From Lachnospiraceae bacterium (GTDB taxonomy: Bacteria > Bacillota > Clostridia > Lachnospirales > Lachnospiraceae): DNA of 64,000 nt. Numbering within the stretch: the stretch's first letter is position 1; the number at the start of each line of letters is the position of its first letter. The DNA is taken from assembly GCA_017465475.1 (NCBI GenBank), contig JAFTWC010000003.1, positions 25,725 to 89,724 of the forward strand. The letters run 5' to 3'. A program made the translations under genes and the position numbers. Below the pieces are notes generated by a model. That model did no database searches and was not told the origin of the DNA. It saw nothing but the letters and a program-made list of their open reading frames with translations. This document shows positions 24,902-47,317 of the stretch, one piece after another.

Positions 24902-25195
24902 ATGGAACAAACAGGATTGAAGATGAATGTCATAAATGAAATCATTGAACTGGCACGTAAGTATCAGATGGAAAAGGTGATTTTGTTCGGTTCCCGTGCC
25001 CGCGGAGACTATACGAGGAGCAGCGATATAGACTTGGCGGTATTAGGAGGGGATGTCGTATCCTTTTCCATAGATGTGGAAGAAAGTGTATCCACTCTTC
25101 TTACTTTTGATATTGTAAATTTGTCTTCGGACGTTGCAGAAGGGTTATTAGAATCGATTAAAGAGGAGGGGCTTGTTTTATATGAAAAAATTTGA
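24902..25195 (+). CDS. nucleotidyltransferase (MNT/MntA-type antitoxin)
   Basis: GSRARGDYTRSSDIDLAV matches GSxxRG...DxD. 97 aa. Confidence 0.85.
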   Translation: MEQTGLKMNVINEIIELARKYQMEKVILFGSRARGDYTRSSDIDLAVLGGDVVSFSIDVEESVSTLLTFDIVNLSSDVAEGLLESIKEEGLVLYEKI

Positions 25196-25583
25196 GAATT
25201 ATTTATCAAATCTGGCGGTGTTAGAAAAGGCAGATAAGGAAGATTTGGAAAACGAATTCATTTTAAGTGGGGTAATCGATAAGTTTTTTTTGCAGTTTGA
25301 ACTTGGATGGAAGGTCTTAAAGGAGTTATTAAGATACGAGGGAAAAGCTGTTGCGAATACCGGGTCTCCCAGAGAGATTATAAAAGCTGCATATGCTGTG
25401 TATGATTTTATGGAAGAAGAGACGTGGTTATCCATGTTAAGAGACAGAAACGACATGGCACACGTATATGATGAAGAGGCAGCGAAGCGATTAGTGAAAA
25501 AGATTTTAGAAGTGTACATACCGACGTTTGTTCAGTTGAAGGATAGCTTGACGGAGTATTATGACGGAACTATTCCGGAGTAA
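25182..25583 (+). CDS. HEPN-domain protein, HI0074 / nucleotidyltransferase substrate-binding family (HepT-type toxin)
   Basis: RNDMAHVY matches the Rx4HxY HEPN motif. 14-nt overlap with the MNT gene. Confidence 0.85.
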   Translation: MKKFENYLSNLAVLEKADKEDLENEFILSGVIDKFFLQFELGWKVLKELLRYEGKAVANTGSPREIIKAAYAVYDFMEEETWLSMLRDRNDMAHVYDEEAAKRLVKKILEVYIPTFVQLKDSLTEYYDGTIPE

Positions 25584-25711
25584 GAATAAAGCGGCTATAA
25601 TGAAGAGTTTAATTTGCTAAAAGTCAAGTTCAATTTACTAATTTTGAAGAAAAATAGTAAATTAAACAGGACTTTATAAGGTAAAACAAAGAATAGTAGG
25701 AGATCACAAAC

Positions 25712-25948
25712 ATGTCAAGAACCATGCAATTTAAAATGGAACGTCCCGGTCTTGTGGAAGTGGGACAGGAGGTAGAAATCAGAGAGTCTACCCTACCGAA
25801 TGCAATCTTTTATTATGTCATAGAACCGGCGGTAGCCATGTCCGGAAATATTCCGTTCCGTGAGAGGCTCACAAAACTTTCCGGTGTAGTAAAAGACGTA
25901 GAAGAAAATGCAAAAGGATTCTATGTAACAGTAGAATTTGAGGAATAG
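25712..25948 (+). CDS. hypothetical 78-aa protein
   Basis: Good RBS (AGGAGA 7 nt upstream of the ATG). I recognise no motif. Confidence 0.5.
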
Positions 25949-26018
25949 TATCGGAAGCGGTATGAAAGAGTTTGACTATCTTGTAAGGGGACTGTGTAAA
26001 GAAATCGAATGTAGCACA

Positions 26019-26261
26019 CTCTTGCGAGTGGTATGGAAGGTACAGTAGAGTAAAACAAATGCGGCATTGAAATTGATTTTCGAATTTGTCCGAAGGACCG
26101 CGTTTTTAGCTGAGTCGAAATCACCTCTTAGAAAAGACTGGGCGCGAGGTCGCTCCCGAGCGTCCTAGTCGTTCTTAGAGGAAGTTTGACGAGGCGTTGC
26201 GTTTTGAGAAAAATCAATTTCAATGCCGCATTTGTTTTTTATGCCACCCCACTCGCAAGAG
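26019..26261. repeat. 243-bp composite palindrome (outer 13-bp arms, inner 29-bp perfect arms, two inverted copies of a 56-nt core)
   Basis: CTCTTGCGAGTGG at 26019-26031 pairs with 26249-26261. AAAACAAATGCGGCATTGAAATTGATTTT at 26052-26080 pairs perfectly with 26210-26238. The interior 26090-26205 is an imperfect palindrome. Confidence 0.85.
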
Positions 26262-26275
26262 CGGGGGAAAACTTT

Positions 26276-27280
26276 TTATCGGATTCTTTCCGGGAAACCA
26301 ATCTTTTTCTGTACTTTACGAAGGGTCTTGTTTGCCACGTAGTTGGCACGTTCACCGTTGTTCTTGATAATGCTGTCGATGTATGCCTTATCCTTGGAAA
26401 GCTCTGCTACACGGTCCTGAAGCGGCTTTAACACGTCCACAACGGATTCGCCTACAGCTAACTTAAAATCACCATAGCCCTTGCCTGCAAATTCCTTTTC
26501 TACTTCTTCAACGGATTTGCCGGTGGTTGCACGATAAATGTCGATTAAGTTGCTGATACCCGGCTTTTCTGCTGCGTAACGGATTTCGTTGTCAGAGTCG
26601 GTTACGGCACGCTTAAACTTACGGATAATGGTATCCGGGTCGTCCATAAGATAAATGCTTGCGTTTAAGTTCTCATCGGACTTAGACATCTTCTTGGTCG
26701 GGTCCTGCAGGCTCATAATCTTTGCACCAACCTTGCCGAGGTATGCTTCCGGAATTTTAAATACATCACCGTAGATACCGTTGAAGCGCTGCGCAATATC
26801 ACGGGTCAGCTCAAGGTGCTGCATCTGGTCGATACCTACCGGAACTACATCAGCCTGGAACAATAAAATGTCCGCTGCCATCAGTACCGGGTAAGTGAAG
26901 AGTCCTGCATTAATGTTATCCGCATGCTTTGCTGACTTATCTTTAAACTGGGTCATACGCTGTAACTCGCCCATGTAAGTATAACAATTTAAAATCCAAG
27001 CAAGCTCCGCATGACCGGAAACGTGGGACTGATAGTAGATACAGTTCTTTTCCGGGTCAAGACCTGCTGCGATATAAAGGGTCAAAAGGGCGCGGGCACG
27101 CTGGCGAAGCTCTGCCGGATTCTGGCGCACGGTAATGGAGTGTTCGTCTACCACACAGTAGTAGCACTCGTAGTCTTCGTTTAAAGAAACCCAGTTCTTT
27201 AATGCACCGAGATAATTGCCGAGAGTTAAGTTGCCGGTTGCCTGCATTCCGCTGAATAAGATTTTCTTTTCGTCTGCCAT
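26276..27280 (-). CDS. trpS: tryptophan--tRNA ligase
   Basis: The class I HIGH-region equivalent (TGNLTLGNYLG) and KMSKS are both present. 334 aa. Confidence 0.95.
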   Translation of the reverse strand: MADEKKILFSGMQATGNLTLGNYLGALKNWVSLNEDYECYYCVVDEHSITVRQNPAELRQRARALLTLYIAAGLDPEKNCIYYQSHVSGHAELAWILNCYTYMGELQRMTQFKDKSAKHADNINAGLFTYPVLMAADILLFQADVVPVGIDQMQHLELTRDIAQRFNGIYGDVFKIPEAYLGKVGAKIMSLQDPTKKMSKSDENLNASIYLMDDPDTIIRKFKRAVTDSDNEIRYAAEKPGISNLIDIYRATTGKSVEEVEKEFAGKGYGDFKLAVGESVVDVLKPLQDRVAELSKDKAYIDSIIKNNGERANYVANKTLRKVQKKIGFPERIR

Positions 27281-33528: not shown

Positions 33529-34569
33529 ATGGAAGAAAAGATATTAGAAAAAATTTGTCATGTATATAACCTGGGTGAGTTATTATGTAAACCAACCCGC
33601 TTAACCGGTGGCTTTATGCACAAAATGTATTCCCTGTTTACGACCCGGGGGAAATACGCCGTGAAGCTTTTGAATCCGTTCATCATGCAACGGAAAGATG
33701 CAATGGACAATTATCGTACCGCTGAGATGTTTGAATCAGCGTTGGAACAGACGAAGATTCCGATTCTTCCGGCGTTACTTTTCCATGAAAAGAAGATGCA
33801 GTGTATGGACGGGCAGTACTTTTATTTGTATCAGTGGTATGACGGTAAGGCATTAAATAGCGAAGAAATTACACCGTATCATTGTGAGAAAATCGGTGGA
33901 ATACTGGCAGAAATTCATGGATTAAAACTTCTGCGGACAAACGGGGCAGAAGCGGAACTCGGATCGGAATGCTGTGAAGAAAAGTACGAACGGAAAGAAC
34001 TTCACATTGATTGGGACGATTATATCGAACAGCTGACCGTAAAGAATAGGTCACTTTCCGAACTGTTGCAGACAAACCGCGTCCTCCTTTATGAAAGTCA
34101 GGACAAAGGCAACGAAGCCATAAAAAAGCTCCCGACCACAGTGGCAATCTGCCATAACGATATGGACAGCAAAAATGTGCTTTGGAGCGGGCAAGAGTGC
34201 CGGATTATAGATTTGGAGTGCCTTTCCTACGGAAGTCCGGTGATGGAACTGTATGAGCTGGCACTGTGCTGGTCCGGTTATGAGGTATGTAACATAGACT
34301 TTTCACTGTTTCAAAGCTTTATCCGGGCCTATGCAAAAGCCGGGGGGACACTTCCGACGGACTGGGAAACGGTGTACTACTGTAACAACGGCCGATTGGA
34401 ATGGTTGGAGTACAATGTAAAACGAGCTCTCGGTATGGAATGTTCGGAAGAAGAAATCGAGATGGGTGTGGAGCAAGTAAAGGAAACCATGGCTCACGTG
34501 ATTTATTATCATGAAGCGAAGAAGGACATACTTGAATGCTTGGATAACTTGATTTCACCGGAGCCGTAA
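33529..34569 (+). CDS. phosphotransferase-family (APH / choline-kinase-like) protein
   Basis: Catalytic loop CHNDMDSKNVLW (HxDxxxxN) and IIDLE. 346 aa. Confidence 0.7.
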   Translation: MEEKILEKICHVYNLGELLCKPTRLTGGFMHKMYSLFTTRGKYAVKLLNPFIMQRKDAMDNYRTAEMFESALEQTKIPILPALLFHEKKMQCMDGQYFYLYQWYDGKALNSEEITPYHCEKIGGILAEIHGLKLLRTNGAEAELGSECCEEKYERKELHIDWDDYIEQLTVKNRSLSELLQTNRVLLYESQDKGNEAIKKLPTTVAICHNDMDSKNVLWSGQECRIIDLECLSYGSPVMELYELALCWSGYEVCNIDFSLFQSFIRAYAKAGGTLPTDWETVYYCNNGRLEWLEYNVKRALGMECSEEEIEMGVEQVKETMAHVIYYHEAKKDILECLDNLISPEP

Positions 34570-34644
34570 GGTTTGAAACATCTGCAAACCGTACAGGAAT
34601 ATCCATCTGAACCGGAAAATCAGTATGAGAGGTAGAAACGGAAG

Positions 34645-34807
34645 AACTCTTTCCGGCGATAAAAGAACGGTAAAATAGCCCCAGACACCGATATTATATA
34701 TTTTTTGCATTCCCGAAGGGGCGCGCTTTTAGCGCAGTCGAAATCAGCTCTTAGGGATGGTTAGGCGCTTGGGGCTGTAAATATTGTATTAATCGCCGGA
34801 AAGAGTT
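34645..34807. repeat. 163-bp hairpin element carrying a third copy of the 56-nt core seen at 26090-26145
   Basis: AACTCTTTCCGGCGAT at 34645-34660 pairs perfectly with 34792-34807. The core at 34713-34768 matches 26090-26145 at 44 of 56 positions in my ungapped manual alignment. Confidence 0.75.
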
Positions 34808-34815
34808 AGGTATCC

Positions 34816-37242
34816 CTACTCCGCTAACGGTATCGTTAATTTTGCCTTAAACAAGTCCCCGTCGATTTCCACGTAGAAGCTGCCACCCTGCAGTGCTGCC
34901 AGACTTTCCGCAATGGAAAGACCGAGGCCACTGCCGTCTCCGGACCGATCGTCGTTTCCACGGGAGAAACGGGTTAAGAGTTCCTCCGGGGTCTTGGTAA
35001 GAACGGAAGCGGAAGTATTCTTCATGGTGAGGAGGGCAAGCCCGGTACCTTCCGGAAGATCCAGAGAAATAAACACTCTGGTGCCGGAAAGGGCGTATTT
35101 GCACACGTTGGAAAGCATATTTTCAATAATGCGGTGGGTACAGGCACCGTCTGCTAACACATTAACAGGCGTGTCCGGCAAGTTCATGCAAAGAGTTAAA
35201 TTACGTTCTTCCAAGCGTTCTTCAAAATCACCTACGGCCTGGTGAAGCAGTTCTAAGGCATTGAACCGAATCGGATCCAAATGCATGGTGCCGGAGGCTG
35301 CTTTGGAAGCCTCTACCAAATCATCAATCAGTCCTTTTAAACGCCAGGACTTCTGGGAAAGGATTTCTGCATATTCCGCAACCGCACCTTCCTGCGGCAA
35401 TTCATTTTTAATTAATTCAATATAGTTAATAATGGAAGTGAGCGGCGTTTTAATATCGTGAGAAACGTTTGTAATCAGTTCTGTTTTCATACGCTCACTT
35501 TTTGTTTGTTCTTCTACGGCAGAATGCAGTCCGTCACAAATCTGATTGATATTTTCCGATAGATTTTTGTTGGATGGAAGCATGGATGTGGTAGGAATCC
35601 GGGCAGACAAATTACCTTCGGACATCTGGAAGGTGATTTGGGAAATCCGCGCACGGTCTAACATGTTTCTGAGACAAACCACGGCACAGAACACAATCCC
35701 AAGGAGCAGGATGATGAGCGCAACGGCCGGCTGCTCCATAAGGAAAAAGACAAAGGTCAGGAGTAACCAACAGATTCCTCCGCTCATGTACAGGAATGTT
35801 TTGCCGAGAGAAGGAAGGTGATGATAGAACTCCTTCAGGTTAGATCCGATATAACGGAACAACTTCCTAATAGGTAAAATCACATAGCGTCCCAGCAAAG
35901 CACTGCTAAGAAAGGTCTTTGCCTTAATTCGACGTATCAGGCTGAAATATAAAAGTCCGCCTATGAAAAGAAACAGTGTCAAACAACCGAGGAAAAAGGA
36001 TACCCACTGTTTGTAATCAAAATAATTCATAAGTAACTCAGTGAGAGTTGTTTCCCAATAGGGTTGTCCCACCTCTTTCCATAAAAGAAACGGAACCATA
36101 AACAGTCCCAGAAGAGCCAGTAAAATAAGTTCAGTATAAATCCGATCATAAAAGTGAAGATGGATTTCGTCGGTATCGCTTCGTCTTCCGGACAGAACAT
36201 TGCTTAACATAAACAAAAGAAAAGAGAGCAATGTAAAGAAAACGGTGTGATTCAGTCTGTCTCCGAAATCTTTTTTTGCATCGTTAAAGCTTTTGGCAAG
36301 ATTGGAAAACTCGTCTGCAACAAGGTTATCAGATACAAAGGCATACAGAAGATAGGTGCCGTTGGGTGGTGCCGGAGGTTCTGCACCCGGAGTTGTAATC
36401 GGATCTGTAAACGGAAAATTGATATACGGAGAATCCGGTGGGTATGTTTCTATACGGAGTCCGCCGGATTCCACGCGTAACGCAGAAGTCGCTTTTGGTG
36501 CCGGCGTCGATACCGGTTCAAACCCGGAATTGGCTACAGCTTCTAAATAGTCCATATCATTTGAATCCATGTCGGATTCGGACGTGTTGTAGTTATAGTC
36601 GTACTGAATATCCTCCGCCATTTCAGATAAAGGACGGCGCAAAAAGTCCATGGACCAAAGAAGATTGGAACGGTTTAGAACGTTGTTGTTTCCGCCGCCG
36701 GTCATGGTACGGTTGTTTCCCGTATTTAAAATAAGGTATAGATTCTCATGAATAATTCCGGAGGAAAGAAATGCTTCCACGCTGCCGCTTTTTTGTGTGG
36801 CATAGCTCTCAAAGCCGGTCGATGCATAAACTTTGCCGGTGTCTGTGTTTTTAACGTAGTACTGGTAATTGGTGGGTTCCTCATTTAATTTTGCGTGATA
36901 ATAGTAAAAAGCGGTTTCGCTCGGTTCGTAAACATTAAAGAGAGCACTTTCCAAATCGGTGTCGGTAACTTCACCGTTCAGTAAAAGCGCAAGCTCCGAC
37001 GTAATATCCGTATTACTTAATTCATAGCCGTCTTCCCGATAACGGACATAGACGGCAGTACGTTCTACATATTTTGAAAAGAGTTCGGAGTATTGTTCTG
37101 TTTCATAAACGGTTTTGGCGTTTTTGTACAGAAGCGGGGCCCGCAAGGTTAAAAAACCATAGTGCGCGGCAACGACACAACAAAACAGAAGAAGAACTGC
37201 CAGTATGGTTTTGGTTATGCCGGAATAAATAACGCGTTTCAT
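34816..37242 (-). CDS. sensor histidine kinase with a large extracytoplasmic domain
   Basis: 808 aa. TM1 near the N-terminus, a roughly 300-aa external region, several TM segments, H-box SHDIKTPLTSI and a HATPase_c domain (GSGLGLSIA). Confidence 0.85.
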   Translation of the reverse strand: MKRVIYSGITKTILAVLLLFCCVVAAHYGFLTLRAPLLYKNAKTVYETEQYSELFSKYVERTAVYVRYREDGYELSNTDITSELALLLNGEVTDTDLESALFNVYEPSETAFYYYHAKLNEEPTNYQYYVKNTDTGKVYASTGFESYATQKSGSVEAFLSSGIIHENLYLILNTGNNRTMTGGGNNNVLNRSNLLWSMDFLRRPLSEMAEDIQYDYNYNTSESDMDSNDMDYLEAVANSGFEPVSTPAPKATSALRVESGGLRIETYPPDSPYINFPFTDPITTPGAEPPAPPNGTYLLYAFVSDNLVADEFSNLAKSFNDAKKDFGDRLNHTVFFTLLSFLLFMLSNVLSGRRSDTDEIHLHFYDRIYTELILLALLGLFMVPFLLWKEVGQPYWETTLTELLMNYFDYKQWVSFFLGCLTLFLFIGGLLYFSLIRRIKAKTFLSSALLGRYVILPIRKLFRYIGSNLKEFYHHLPSLGKTFLYMSGGICWLLLTFVFFLMEQPAVALIILLLGIVFCAVVCLRNMLDRARISQITFQMSEGNLSARIPTTSMLPSNKNLSENINQICDGLHSAVEEQTKSERMKTELITNVSHDIKTPLTSIINYIELIKNELPQEGAVAEYAEILSQKSWRLKGLIDDLVEASKAASGTMHLDPIRFNALELLHQAVGDFEERLEERNLTLCMNLPDTPVNVLADGACTHRIIENMLSNVCKYALSGTRVFISLDLPEGTGLALLTMKNTSASVLTKTPEELLTRFSRGNDDRSGDGSGLGLSIAESLAALQGGSFYVEIDGDLFKAKLTIPLAE

Positions 37243-40156: not shown

Positions 40157-41946
40157 TGAAAAAAGTGTGCAGTAATCTCTGGTTTATGTGGAAGCTTTGT
40201 TTTAAGACGGCACCGGGTTTTATGCTGTATCATTTGTATGACGGCTTCCGGTTGCAGATTATGATTTTTTTGGAACATACCCTTTGCATCCAGTACGTAT
40301 TAAAGTGTGCGGAGTACGGAGAACCGTTTTGGAAGGTGTTTTTAGTTGTGGGAGGATTTTTGTTACTCATGATGCTGGTGACGATTCCGGACGGATATTA
40401 TCAGCATGCTATGGTATATCGCGTCAAACCGAAGCTTTATAAGGCTTTAAAGGATCAGATGTACGAAAAAGCAGCGGAGCTTGATCTTTCTTGCTATGAC
40501 AATCCGAAATACTACAATGAGTTTGTGTTGGCTGTGTCGGAGTCGGAGACTTCCATTGACCGTTTCCTGACGTTCTTAAACAATACGGTACAAAGTATAA
40601 CCATCTTAATTAGCACCGGTGTGTTCTTTATCTTGACGGATTCCATCGGAATTTTGTTTGTATCGGTATCCTTTGTGGCATCCTTCTTCCTGGCGAAGAA
40701 GTTAAATAAGTTGAATTACGATGTACGTATGAAAGTGAATCCTTGGGAACGTAAACGGAACTATGCCGGTCGTGTCTTTTACTTAAACGACTATGCGAAG
40801 GAGTTGCGTCTGAACAAGGATGTTGCCAAGATTTTGAAGGAAGACTTTGAAGAAGCCAACGATGCCATTGTGGCGGAACAGAAGGCAGTGGCAAAAAAGA
40901 GAATCGGACTGTCCTTTTTGCGGTATTACTGTGCAGGAGACTTTATTACGGATGGTTTGTATGTGGCCTATTTGATTTTCCAGGCAGCGGTATTCCATAC
41001 CATCGACTACAGCAATGCGGTGGTGCTGTTTAACCAGACCGGACGTTTGCGCAGGGGCATGCGCGGTATTGCGGAAATCGGACCGGCAGCCAATGAAAAC
41101 AGCTTGTACATAGAGAAAATCAGAAGTTTCCTTGCCTATGAACCGGAAATGAAGCAAGGTGTAGGTGAGGAAGTACCGGCAGGAACGGGAAGTCTGGAGC
41201 TGAAAAACGTGTCTTTCCGTTATACGGAGGATTCCGAGGAGATTTTACATGATATCAGCCTTAAGGTAGAACCGGGGGAGCGCGTGGCTATCGTAGGTTA
41301 CAACGGTGCCGGAAAGACGACGTTAATCAAGCTTTTGATGCGTTTGTACGACCCGAGTGCAGGTACGGTGGCTTACCACGGAAAGGACATTAAAGAGTAT
41401 GTACTTTCTGACTACAGAAATCGTGTAGGTGTTGTATTCCAGGACTTTAAGATGTACGGTGCAACTCTGTTGGAAAATGTGGTATTGGAAGATGTGGGCG
41501 ACGGTAAGAAGGAAGAAGCGGCAGTAACCGAAGCACTTTGTAAGAGTGGGTTCGGGGACAGAATCGAAACCTTGCCGAAGGGGCTTTCTACCGGTCTGAC
41601 CACGGAGTTCGACGAAAAAGGAGTGAACTTATCCGGCGGTGAAAGTCAGAAGGTAGCTATTGCAAGAGCCTTTTACCGTCAGGCGGATATTCTTATTATG
41701 GATGAACCGTCTTCTGCATTGGACCCGATTGCAGAGTACAATTTAAATAAAGCCATGCATGAGGCAGCGGAAGGAAAAACCGTATTCTATATTTCCCACC
41801 GTCTTTCCACCACCAGAGAGGCGGACCGTATCCTGATGCTGGAAAAGGGCCGGATTATTGAGGAAGGTACCCATGAGGAGCTGCTTGCAAAAAACGGGCA
41901 GTATGCCGAGATGTGGTATGCCCAGGCAGGAAAGTACACGGCGTAG
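40156..41946 (+). CDS. ABC exporter, fused permease/ATPase subunit (heterodimer partner 2)
   Basis: 6-TM domain plus NBD (GYNGAGKTT, LSGGESQK, IMDEPSSALD). 1-nt start/stop overlap with the upstream gene. Confidence 0.9.
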   Translation: MKKVCSNLWFMWKLCFKTAPGFMLYHLYDGFRLQIMIFLEHTLCIQYVLKCAEYGEPFWKVFLVVGGFLLLMMLVTIPDGYYQHAMVYRVKPKLYKALKDQMYEKAAELDLSCYDNPKYYNEFVLAVSESETSIDRFLTFLNNTVQSITILISTGVFFILTDSIGILFVSVSFVASFFLAKKLNKLNYDVRMKVNPWERKRNYAGRVFYLNDYAKELRLNKDVAKILKEDFEEANDAIVAEQKAVAKKRIGLSFLRYYCAGDFITDGLYVAYLIFQAAVFHTIDYSNAVVLFNQTGRLRRGMRGIAEIGPAANENSLYIEKIRSFLAYEPEMKQGVGEEVPAGTGSLELKNVSFRYTEDSEEILHDISLKVEPGERVAIVGYNGAGKTTLIKLLMRLYDPSAGTVAYHGKDIKEYVLSDYRNRVGVVFQDFKMYGATLLENVVLEDVGDGKKEEAAVTEALCKSGFGDRIETLPKGLSTGLTTEFDEKGVNLSGGESQKVAIARAFYRQADILIMDEPSSALDPIAEYNLNKAMHEAAEGKTVFYISHRLSTTREADRILMLEKGRIIEEGTHEELLAKNGQYAEMWYAQAGKYTA

Positions 41947-42207
41947 AGGGACGCAACCGCTCTGATGCGGCATCCATGCCTTATGGCGAGCTCGCTCAGA
42001 CATCCTGTCTGAGCGTTGCTGTATTCTTACGAAGTAATAAGAAAGTCTAATATCCTGCACAAAGTTCGAAGATACGTTTATGTGCGGGAAGCTCCTGAGA
42101 CTTTGAAAAGAGTGGCCACCCGAATCATCCCTGAAAGTTAAGAAAAGTGAAGGTTGCCGGATGGATAGTAAGTATGAGTTTCTTTCCTACAAGTACGGAT
42201 GAAAGAG

Positions 42208-45891: not shown

Positions 45892-46368
45892 ATGCAGACA
45901 AGAAAATCAAGCCGGGCAATTGTTTTAAATAAGCAGAATCAAATATTTCTGTTTTGCTATACTTTCGACTTCTTTGCCGAAAACGATGCCATCTGGATAA
46001 CACCAGGTGGAGCATTGGAGGAAGGAGAGTCCTTTGAAGGTGCTCTGAAAAGGGAGCTTTTTGAAGAACTTGGGATTAAGATTACGGCGCAGGCACCGTT
46101 TGTTTTTTATCGGACACCGATGTATAAGTTAAAGGGCGGAGAAACGGTGCGAAGTGAGGAACGGTTTTATCTTGTATATTGCGATGATGAGACGTTTTCT
46201 TACAACGGTTGGAGTGAGAATGAGATGAAAAAGATGACTGCCGGAAAGTGGTGGTCTGTGGAAGAAATCAAAAAGTCTTCCGAGAAGTTTTTCTCGGAGG
46301 ATATCGTGGAAATACTGGAGAGGCTTTCCGCGGGAGAAATCCTGAAAGAACCGTTGGAGATTCGGTGA
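45892..46368 (+). CDS. NUDIX hydrolase
   Basis: Nudix box GGALEEGESFEGALKRELFEELG. Confidence 0.85.
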   Translation: MQTRKSSRAIVLNKQNQIFLFCYTFDFFAENDAIWITPGGALEEGESFEGALKRELFEELGIKITAQAPFVFYRTPMYKLKGGETVRSEERFYLVYCDDETFSYNGWSENEMKKMTAGKWWSVEEIKKSSEKFFSEDIVEILERLSAGEILKEPLEIR

Positions 46369-46391
46369 GAGACTGAACGCTGTTGAAGACA

Positions 46392-46857
46392 CCCAACGAA
46401 ACGAAGAAAAAGAAGAAATCGTTGGGTGGAAGAGCCAGGGTGAACCCAACGAAACGAAGAAAAAGGAGAAATCGTTGGGGGGAAGAGCCAGGGTGAACCC
46501 AACGAAACGAAGAAAAAGAAGAAATCGTTGGGTGGAAGAGTCAGGAAGAACCCAACGAAACGAAGAAAAAGGAGAAATCGTTGGGTAGAAGAGTCAAGGT
46601 GTACCCAACGAAACGAAGAAAAAGAAGAAATCGTTGGGTAGAAGAGCCAAGAAGAACCCAACGAAACGAAGAAAAAGAAGAAATCGTTGGGTAGAAGAGC
46701 CGGGAAGAACCCAACGAAATGAAGAAAAAGAAGAAATCGTTGGGTAGAAGAGTAGGGGAGAACCCAACGAAACGAAGAAAAAGGAGAAATCGTTGGGTGG
46801 AAGAGCCAAGGTGGACCCAACGAAACGAAGAAAACCAAGAATAAGTTGGATTATACC
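46392..46857. repeat. tandem array: 8 complete and 1 degenerate copy of a 53-bp unit, each holding a hairpin (CCCAACGA / TCGTTGGG arms, 19-nt purine-rich loop)
   Basis: Motif starts at 46392, 46445, 46498, 46551, 46604, 46657, 46710, 46763 and 46816, an exact 53-bp period. Confidence 0.95.
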
Positions 46858-46873
46858 GTGCAAGCGTTATAAT
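46846..46873 (+). promoter_or_regulatory. sigma-A-type promoter of the HIT gene
   Basis: TTGGAT, 16 nt, TATAAT. The -35 lies inside the degenerate last repeat unit. Confidence 0.45.
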
Positions 46874-46901
46874 AAATATCAAAAAAGGCAGGGTTGATAA
46901 A

Positions 46902-47317
46902 ATGATACATAAAAACAACGATTGCATATTTTGTAAAATAATAAGCGGTGAGCGCCCGTGCAAGAAGGTGTACGAGGATGAGTATACTTTAGTAACCATG
47001 GATAAAGCCGGAGATGCAGACGGACATATGCTTGTGATGCCGAAAAAACATGTAAATAACATTATGGATACGGACATTGAGTCGTTAAATCAGATGATGG
47101 CGACGGTGAAAAGGTGTCCAATCATTGCGTGGACAACTGCGGATACGAAGGAATTAACCTGATAGGGACCAACGGACCCGGCGCGGACCAAACGGTTCCC
47201 CATTTTCATATGCATGTGATTCCGCGTAAGAAGGATGACGGCATCGAAGCTTGGCCGGAGTTCGGCGGGGCGAAGCATGACATGGACGAGATATTTGAGA
47301 AAATCAAGATGATGTAA
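46902..47317 (+). pseudogene. HIT-family (histidine triad) protein interrupted by a 1-nt frameshift
   Basis: The two ORFs 46902-47162 and 47114-47317 together give a complete HIT protein (CIFCKI..., HMLVMPKKH, HFHMHVIPR). The frame changes at the A4 run 47109-47112. Confidence 0.8.

Follow-up and report, generated by a model that had tools for sequence, protein, structure and literature searches.

A probable half-deleted copy of a palindromic interspersed element in a Lachnospiraceae genome, with a frame in common with TwoAYGGAY RNAs

The hairpin at 34645-34807 and its truncation

Two related 56-nt segments, at 26090-26145 and 34713-34768, lie in the window (the whole 64,000-nt stretch of Lachnospiraceae DNA that was analyzed), both inside long hairpins of otherwise unrelated sequence and both immediately past a minus-strand stop codon. 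This arrangement raises the question of whether the segment or the hairpin around it is the repeated unit, and what kind of unit that is. Comparison with the remainder of this genome (hereafter the own genome) and with sister species of the genus points to an answer that we hold to be rather probable, namely that the feature at 34645-34807 is a broken, half-deleted copy of a non-coding palindromic interspersed element of ~250-350 bp.

The similarity that the preliminary description of this DNA had reported was recovered in full. A repeat finder aligns the two segments with 44 of 56 identical positions (79%) and no gaps, and BLAST gives 36 of 42 over the first part. The outer arms, 34645-34663 and 34789-34807, are complementary at 95% of 19 nt, including the 16 perfect pairs named earlier, AGCCCCA at 34677-34683 pairs exactly with TGGGGCT at 34770-34776, and the convergent-gene setting described for both loci agrees with the open reading frames found around the hairpins. 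The region 34645-34807 folds with -68.3 kcal/mol (z = -6.2 against shuffles). Because the window copy is found both by a profile made from other copies of the own genome (E = 2.2e-12) and by a covariance model (37.4 bits, E = 7.4e-6), the core match is not due to chance. The extent that had been ascribed to it did not hold: the 56-nt core is a conserved match but not a complete unit, since it covers only the 5' half of a 112-nt module, of which the copy at 34713 is a truncated example. Likewise, three copies had been counted, and the repeat is real, but the genome holds ~18 copies of the 112-nt module. The parts of both loci are listed in Table 1.

Table 1. Positions of the parts of the two hairpin loci and of neighboring features in the window
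Feature	Position	Strand	Basis or remark
Full-length sister copy (locus 1)	26019..26261	+	Fold, nhmmer, covariance model 144.9 bits; outer arms 26019-26031 / 26249-26261, perfect inner arms 26052-26080 / 26210-26238, module 26090-26201
Resident bidirectional terminator CCACCCCACTC-GCAA-GAGCGGGGG	26244..26267	.	Sister species without element have only this terminator after a 78-aa ORF (L166-L168)
TrpRS ORF	26276-27280	-	Ends 14 nt beyond the locus 1 hairpin
APH / choline-kinase-like gene, convergent on hairpin	33529..34569	+	Context
Outer 5' arm AACTCTTTCCGGCGATAAA	34645..34663	+	Pairs with 34789-34807 (19 nt, 95%); same arms at orthologous site in G005, G011, G012
5' internal loop between outer and inner arms	34664..34676	+	Orthologue alignment and fold
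5' inner arm AGCCCCAGACACCGATATTATATATTTTTTGC, intact, with conserved TTTTTGC end	34677..34708	+	G005 orthologue L018 has both arms, complementary
Linker ATTC and module 5' half (56 nt): CCC-GAA-GGG side hairpin, 5' strand of long arm	34709..34768	+	nhmmer, model positions 1-57 only; 37.4 bits
Deletion junction	34768..34769	.	84 nt of the G005 orthologue missing; four-way orthologous-site alignment
Final 8 nt TTGGGGCT of 3' inner arm	34769..34776	+	TGGGGCT 34770-34776 pairs with AGCCCCA 34677-34683
3' internal loop	34777..34788	+	Orthologous-site alignment
Outer 3' arm TTAATCGCCGGAAAGAGTT	34789..34807	+	Inverted-repeat pair with 34645-34663
Histidine kinase gene	34816..37242	-	Stop codon 8 nt beyond hairpin
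TwoAYGGAY RNA (RF01731), shortened copy	41915..42041	-	Same type of hairpin, other tip module

Some further features of the window were recorded in passing. Positions 34570-34637 are a remnant of a GNAT-like acetyltransferase gene of which only the first ~45 nt and the last ~20 nt are kept, with a TAG end; in sister species (L014, L015, L017, L018) a GNAT-like ORF of ~170 aa lies between the APH-like gene and the hairpin. Upstream of locus 1, a plus-strand ORF at 25173-25583 encodes a nucleotidyltransferase substrate-binding (HEPN-like) domain, and 46285-46920 consists of nine 53-bp units in tandem.

The orthologous site downstream of the histidine kinase gene presents an allelic series across sister species. 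Genome G005 has the full element with the same outer and inner arms. Relative to it, the window copy lacks 84 nt. The module's 3' half is missing, and of the 3' inner arm, the partner of the arm at 34677-34708, very little is left; the junction is flanked by GGCGC / GGTGC microhomology. G011 has both arm layers with only TTTTTTGC-GCTTA-GCACAAAAA at the center, G012 has the outer arms only, around a 23-nt loop, and in G006 and G008 the site is occupied by other simple hairpins. The window copy is a deletion remnant and is probably inert, and this specific feature is of little importance alone. Core-less or shortened forms elsewhere (L017, contig C26 of the own genome, and hairpins of G007) differ in their end points and retain homologous parts of the inner arm, which indicates palindrome-centered deletions and not empty targets. 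Copies of the element would decay through deletions in or around the center of the palindrome, and the 84-nt loss would be one such case. In G007 (L318-L324) there are also many hairpins of 53-96 bp between TTGAGTTTCCGCATTTT and AAAATGCGGAAACTCAA, which keep the outer part of the inner arm and resemble terminators; these look like center-deleted derivatives of the 250-bp element. The family shows long palindromes decaying to terminator-like hairpins, which bears on the origin of terminators and hairpin RNAs.

Architecture, fold and distribution of the family

In the 120 copies with sufficient flank, the arms form a copy-specific inverted repeat (median self score of 30 against 8 across copies), and a layered build of about constant size is seen copy by copy. 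From the center outward, the 112-nt module is closed by the conserved stem TTTTTGC / GCAAAAA. Next come a near-perfect inner stem, 25-32 bp long, internal loops that measure 10-20 nt on either side, and an outer stem of 12-14 bp that often starts with (A/C)TTCTTA. Many copies carry a one-sided 16-nt bulge, GGCTCGGGCGTGGCGG, on the 5' side, opposite GGG on the 3' side, with an outermost stem, GCGCGGC / GCCGCGC, beyond it; in this bulge subfamily the similarity between copies ends at the GCGCGGC / GCCGCGC stems, which gives a unit of ~290 bp. The full-length copy at locus 1 folds with -117.7 kcal/mol (z = -10.4). In agreement with the palindromic setting proposed earlier for the copies, each lies at the tip of a layered hairpin with near-perfect arms of its own.

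The module folds as a three-way junction, in which the closing stem meets the CCC-GAA-GGG side hairpin and a long arm interrupted by conserved internal loops, and its tip comprises the GAA triloop and a variable apical loop of 5 nt. The apical stem exists in four or more versions, all fully compensated. In an alignment of 35 sequences, 97.5% of pair cells are standard pairs, compared with 86% after shuffling of the 3' partners and ~42% after a shift of these by 1-3 columns, and 15 of the 32 module pairs display double-sided changes. The small side hairpin, which had been said to covary between the two window copies, does so among these diverse copies: columns 12/20 are C-G in 23 and U-A in 12 of the 35, and unpaired in none. 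Copies from other genera have all stems rewritten with compensation and the side hairpin absent, with the loops kept (UUUUAGCG.AG, AAAUC, CUUAG, GAGG-N6-CCCGA, AGUU, and CG.AGCGUUGC); three of the four examined lie inside copy-specific arms (75, 31, and 23 bp). This is the covariation of a structured RNA, and a folded DNA strand would give the same signal. The module stems contain 273 G-U cells on the plus strand against 8 A-C cells, and the conserved G-U pairs, which are replaced by A-U or G-C in some copies, are also seen in other genera. Together, the strong covariation and the strand-specific G-U pairs indicate that the module folds as RNA or single-stranded DNA, and its predicted fold is better as the plus strand in either form. 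The tip is probably a binding site for a protein, as predicted from these sequence patterns, and would act as a folded plus single strand.

Two other readings of these parts were considered and rejected. A coding role for the core is ruled out, as conservation tracks base pairs and not codons; the similar short peptides read from one frame had rightly been taken as incidental, and they are a by-product of conserved nucleotides in a non-coding module whose positions covary in base pairs. The idea that the copy-specific arms are guides or spacers found no third copy of any arm in the own genome and no matches among 50,697 phage records at E up to 1.

A census of the core, by profile search in the own genome and by BLAST in the sister species, found further copies in the own genome and in 17 of 19 sister species, so that the family is not confined to the window. 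The own assembly (3.07 Mb in 81 contigs, 89% complete) contains 15 full copies of the module by profile search and 18 matches with a covariance model made from 35 diverse copies, a model that separates true copies cleanly. A further copy at C26:3274 has an internal deletion, and an additional one on contig C68 is broken up by an 80-nt insert. This insert (C68:17374-17453, locus L157) lies directly 3' of CCGCG, starts with a small hairpin, CCTCGCAAC-AAA-GTTGCGAGG, and may be another small nested element. By BLAST, 17 of the 19 congeneric species have the module, each genome with between 13 and 126 candidate matches (71-126 each in G003, G004, and G007), and 21 genomes of other genera gave no match. 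With the covariance model, diverged copies (1 to 22 in a genome) were found in 6 of 149 other sampled Lachnospiraceae genera. When one genome of each prokaryote species was scanned for an exact pattern, more than 112 stretches matched; with a single exception, these came from uncultured Lachnospiraceae or Clostridia in ruminant, deer, or chicken gut metagenome assemblies. The odd match, L114 (SFMO01000203.1), comes from a metagenome-assembled genome labeled Ruminococcus flavefaciens, a label that may be a binning or labeling error.

The exact core pattern had no match in viral contigs and the core had none in a plasmid collection, on which basis a plasmid origin is ruled out. Scans with Rfam at gathering and permissive thresholds (E up to 1-10), covering the window and 16 copies of the own genome, gave only noise matches to microRNA-precursor hairpins; the Rfam scan suggested earlier thus identifies no known RNA family for the module. 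A literature search for a named Lachnospiraceae MITE found nothing relevant. A 15-nt pattern of the outer arm, which is too short for this purpose, gave 119 stretches in metagenomes, all single random matches. The family behind the finding is an undescribed structured repeat that has its frame in common with TwoAYGGAY. As a covarying, multi-copy motif of at least seven Lachnospiraceae genera that is absent from Rfam, the module is a candidate new family.

Arms, insertion sites and rival explanations

The arms evolve in a concerted manner. Among orthologues, the inner 32 nt of the arm contain 69 positions where both sides have changed and still pair, 36 with a change on one side only, and 11 where both sides have changed and do not pair. 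Median identity of the arms between orthologous copies is 0.75, against 0.85 for the mostly coding far flanks. Isolated arm mismatches comprise 42 of the G-U type, 45 of the A-C type, and 63 transversions; the equal G-U and A-C counts give no sign of RNA-level selection on the arms, a reading that was rejected on this basis. In loci L007 and L119, whose right flanks are 100% identical, a clustered three-base change on one arm is mirrored on the other, and the version of the apical stem has been exchanged as a block. These compensated, clustered changes and the block swap fit templated change within the palindrome combined with gene conversion. After insertion, both arms would change together via intramolecular templating (template switching or hairpin mismatch correction), which would keep them complementary while they drift from the arms of other copies, and copies would exchange tip segments through gene conversion. 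Excerpts of three reports (PMC8794818, PMC13100816, PMC8604942) describe template switching as homogenizing and extending inverted repeats. The family is a clean natural example of co-evolving inverted-repeat arms.

Filled and empty sites were sought by searching the flanks of four own-genome copies against 19 sister species. The copy on contig C50 is missing in 16 of the 16 sister species in which both flanks were matched, where the gap is ~95-206 nt compared with 432 nt in the own genome and in most cases contains a plain terminator. The C78 copy is missing in four species, one of them with a 95%-identical flanking gene. At window locus 1, the element is present in G006, G012, and G013 and absent from G002, G003, G004, G005, and G010. 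The C76 copy is filled in at least six species and is therefore old. Empty orthologous sites lack the entire ~310-nt insert and not the module alone. It should be noted that the evidence for mobility is a comparison between species, and that orthologous copies enter the tallies more than once.

Species with an expanded family indicate what is copied. In G003, G004, and G007, the outer arms are a common terminal motif, CTTGAGTTTCCGCATTTT, at both ends. In G004, copies at separate loci have almost the same inner arms, and contigs break off within copies. In G007, there are 189 matches to the terminal motif TTGAGTTTCCGCATTTT and none to a reversed control, with inverted pairs 243-253 bp apart. 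Arms common to paralogous copies in recently expanded species suggest that the hairpin is copied in its entirety, in the manner of a MITE, and we conclude from this comparison that the copy-specific arms of the own genome would be old arms that have since diverged. Such repeats also break the assemblies of gut genomes recovered from metagenomes. Of the proposals in the preliminary description, a mobile or palindrome-targeting element thus survives in part: the family is dispersed and multi-copy, with filled and empty orthologous sites, but the copied unit appears to be the whole hairpin, arms included (the inner arms are common to the G004 paralogues), and not the core. The flanking stems do differ in sequence, as had been said, but they are diverged parts of the element and not only pre-existing target palindromes. 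The other proposal, a structured RNA module at 3' ends, is borne out by a covarying folded module and by a gene end that faces the element in 57 of 58 contexts, and covariation does not separate RNA from single-stranded DNA. A terminator-like setting was not confirmed, as the terminator scan found no stem-loop followed by a T-run at either window element; resident terminators adjoin the elements.

Searches for a mobilizing partner were negative. No target-site duplication was found at the boundaries, themselves approximate, of copies with defined ends. The Y1 transposase (PF01797) is absent from the own genome (89% complete) and from G116 (99% complete, 11 copies), is present as a fragment only in G007, and occurs in G071, G156, and G165; this distribution is inconsistent with that of the element, and a RAYT or IS200 partner was rejected. 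An autonomous element between terminal motifs of the same orientation in G007 was also rejected, the two candidate intervals containing ordinary small genes and no transposase. At two loci, window locus 1 and C78, the outer arm repeats the resident terminator in inverted orientation, and at locus 1 the center of the terminator at 26244-26267 also serves as the 3' outer arm of the element. Plain cut-and-paste does not predict an outer arm inverted from a terminator, so that palindrome extension or a targeting rule is needed; palindrome extension could lie behind the inverted terminator copies at both loci.

Gene context could be classified for 58 copies: 24 are convergent, 23 lie between two minus-strand genes, 10 between two plus-strand genes, and one is divergent. 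In 47 of these 58, the 3' side of the element lies near the end of a minus-strand gene, and many copies adjoin the far side of the flanking gene's own terminator. In tandem contexts, the element is antisense to the flanking genes in 23 cases and sense in 10, so that read-through would usually yield the weaker-folding strand. Gene context does not decide between RNA and single-stranded DNA. No promoter-like site was found by a consensus scan upstream of either window copy, and a scan for intrinsic terminators (hairpin and T-run) over 25700-26500 and 34400-35000 found none. In addition, the stem GGGCTGTCGCA...TGCGACAGCCC was seen as a terminator or outermost stem at many unrelated loci in the genus (e.g., G018:C64, L174) and may be a separate repeat family.

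We prefer, with moderate confidence, to read the family as a non-autonomous palindromic mobile element with a folded tip that binds a protein. The whole hairpin would be copied to new sites like a MITE, and these sites would mostly be just past intrinsic terminators at gene ends. Counted against this reading are the negative searches for a target-site duplication and a transposase, the outer arms inverted from terminators, and the prevailing antisense orientation in tandem contexts. So are the deeply conserved loops and the stems covarying across genera, as expected of a functional RNA gene, and the main rival, which we regard as unlikely although still worth serious consideration, builds on them. 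It proposes a small-RNA gene family like TwoAYGGAY in which the 112 nt would be the mature RNA, the stem an RNase III processing stalk as in rRNA precursors, the arms would be selected for pairing only, and the window copy would be a dead gene. In its favor are the strong covariation and the conserved unpaired nucleotides, both seen inside the genus and between genera, the conserved G-U pairs on one strand (273 against 8), the fixed orientation of the module relative to the bulge, and the fact that the same frame carries TwoAYGGAY, an RNA family in Rfam (RF01731). A perfect duplex of 25-32 bp is also a suitable substrate for RNase III. However, a stalk under RNA-level selection should show an excess of G-U over A-C mismatches in the arms, where the counts are 42 and 45; neither window copy has a promoter-like site 5' of it; and a range of 0 to more than 100 copies among congeneric species, contig breaks, and many decayed copies are the behavior of a repeat.

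Two further explanations were weighed. A cis-acting 3'-end module, that is, an elaborate or bidirectional terminator or an mRNA-stabilizing hairpin selected at each locus for the neighboring genes, accords with the facing gene ends (57 of 58), with a minus-strand gene end ~140 nt or less from the core in most contexts, and with short derivatives that resemble plain terminator hairpins. We nevertheless consider it improbable: many copies lie past a separate canonical terminator, and at locus 1 the resident terminator is kept beside the element; a plain terminator suffices in sister species; neither window element has a hairpin with a T-run; ten copies lie directly 5' of a ribosome-binding site and start codon; and a three-way junction of 112 nt conserved across genera is unnecessary for termination. 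Alternatively, the module alone (112-116 nt) might be mobile and insert in the loops of pre-existing hairpins, which was the idea behind palindrome targeting. Unrelated outer frames hold the same module (bulge-type in the own genome, TTGAGTTTCCGC-type in G003, G004, and G007), one frame carries either the module or TwoAYGGAY, and the G011 allele, with both arm layers and only its short central sequence, could pass for an empty target. This explanation is nonetheless very improbable, as the core-less forms (L017, C26, and the short G007 hairpins) vary in their end points and keep parts of the inner arm, as deletions do, the inner arms in G004 travel together with the module, and empty orthologous sites are without the whole insert.

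Comparison with TwoAYGGAY and with known repeat families

The mobile-element reading invites comparison with several known systems. Bacterial MITEs and repeats that form long imperfect palindromes include ERIC/IRU, Correia, and RUP/BOX. Like MITEs and ERIC-type repeats, the element is small, non-coding, intergenic, and present in many copies that fold as long hairpins. As in MITEs, there are terminal inverted repeats within a subfamily, filled and empty sites between relatives, and assembly breaks in copies. The element is a short, non-coding, multi-copy sequence with filled and empty sites, and common terminal inverted repeats are present as CTTGAGTTTCCGCATTTT in G003, G004, and G007 and as GCGCGGC...GCCGCGC in the subfamily of the own genome and its relatives; no recognizable shared ends were found in the other copies, both window copies included. 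Unlike in MITEs, no target-site duplication and, in the two G007 intervals, no parent insertion sequence were found, the center and not the ends is most conserved, and the arms evolve jointly and become copy-specific around a center with RNA-like covariation across genera. Mutation of quasipalindromes by template switching, as set out in the excerpts cited above, would account for near-perfect arms, clustered compensated changes, inverted copies of neighboring sequence, and equal counts of G-T and A-C mismatches. It is, however, a mutational process and not an element, and leaves the conserved tip and the dispersal unexplained.

The closest relation is to TwoAYGGAY (RF01731), of which the own genome has 15 RNAs and species of the genus 0-33 each. 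By its Rfam model, membership entails a score of at least 43 bits and two AYGGAY-loop hairpins on a common basal stem. The 112-nt module is without the AYGGAY loops and the two-hairpin tip, and the RF01731 model had no match, even at E up to 1-10, to either window locus or to 16 copies of the own genome. The likeness, which is not a formal Rfam criterion, is that TwoAYGGAY is multi-copy and intergenic, is itself a long hairpin, and has the same flanking architecture. Each of the 14 full-length TwoAYGGAY copies lies between layered arms of its own, which score 21.5-40 when paired with each other; arms paired across copies reach 11 at most. At least four TwoAYGGAY loci have the same GCGCGG stem, GGCTCGGGCGTGGCGG bulge, and ATTCTTA stem as the core family, and the bulge is found upstream of 22 cores and of 4 TwoAYGGAY copies, in every case on the strand of the module and never on the opposite one. 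TwoAYGGAY with bulge and ATTCTTA stem was noted at C22:1078-1244, C48:18442-18605, C23:55218-55382, C59:9118-9284, and window 41915-42041 on the minus strand; the last is a shortened copy of 127 nt (54.8 bits) with a degenerate bulge upstream. The copy numbers of the two are uncoupled, as G003, G004, and G007, with 71-126 candidate module matches, have no TwoAYGGAY.

A 2026 preprint reports that TwoAYGGAY copy number is extremely variable, with expansion like that of a mobile element, and that the basal stem is elongated in Bacillota, and leaves the function open (doi 10.64898/2026.09.22.753630). In the Firmicutes compared here, a palindromic repeat has TwoAYGGAY at its tip, judging by how the motif behaves. 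A bolder proposal, which we offer as speculative and distinctly doubtful, is that a single class of self-correcting palindromic elements carries the 112-nt module and TwoAYGGAY as interchangeable cargo. A putative enzyme would recognize the folded tip, as RNA or single-stranded DNA, and set the whole hairpin past intrinsic terminators without target duplication, sometimes with an inverted copy made of the neighboring terminator, and replication-templated correction would keep the arms perfect. If true, this would amount to an undescribed route of transposition and a functional explanation for TwoAYGGAY. The shared frame is a concrete lead on this motif, which has been known since 2010.

Finally, REP/REPIN-RAYT systems resemble the element as palindromic extragenic repeats at gene ends that are proposed to act as folded single-stranded DNA, and REP/REPIN sequences have been linked to TwoAYGGAY in Pseudomonas (2026 preprint, doi 10.64898/2026.09.22.753630). 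They differ in that the own genome and G116 have copies of the element without a Y1 transposase. REPs are also 20-40 bp long and have conserved arms and variable loops, which is the reverse of the element described here.
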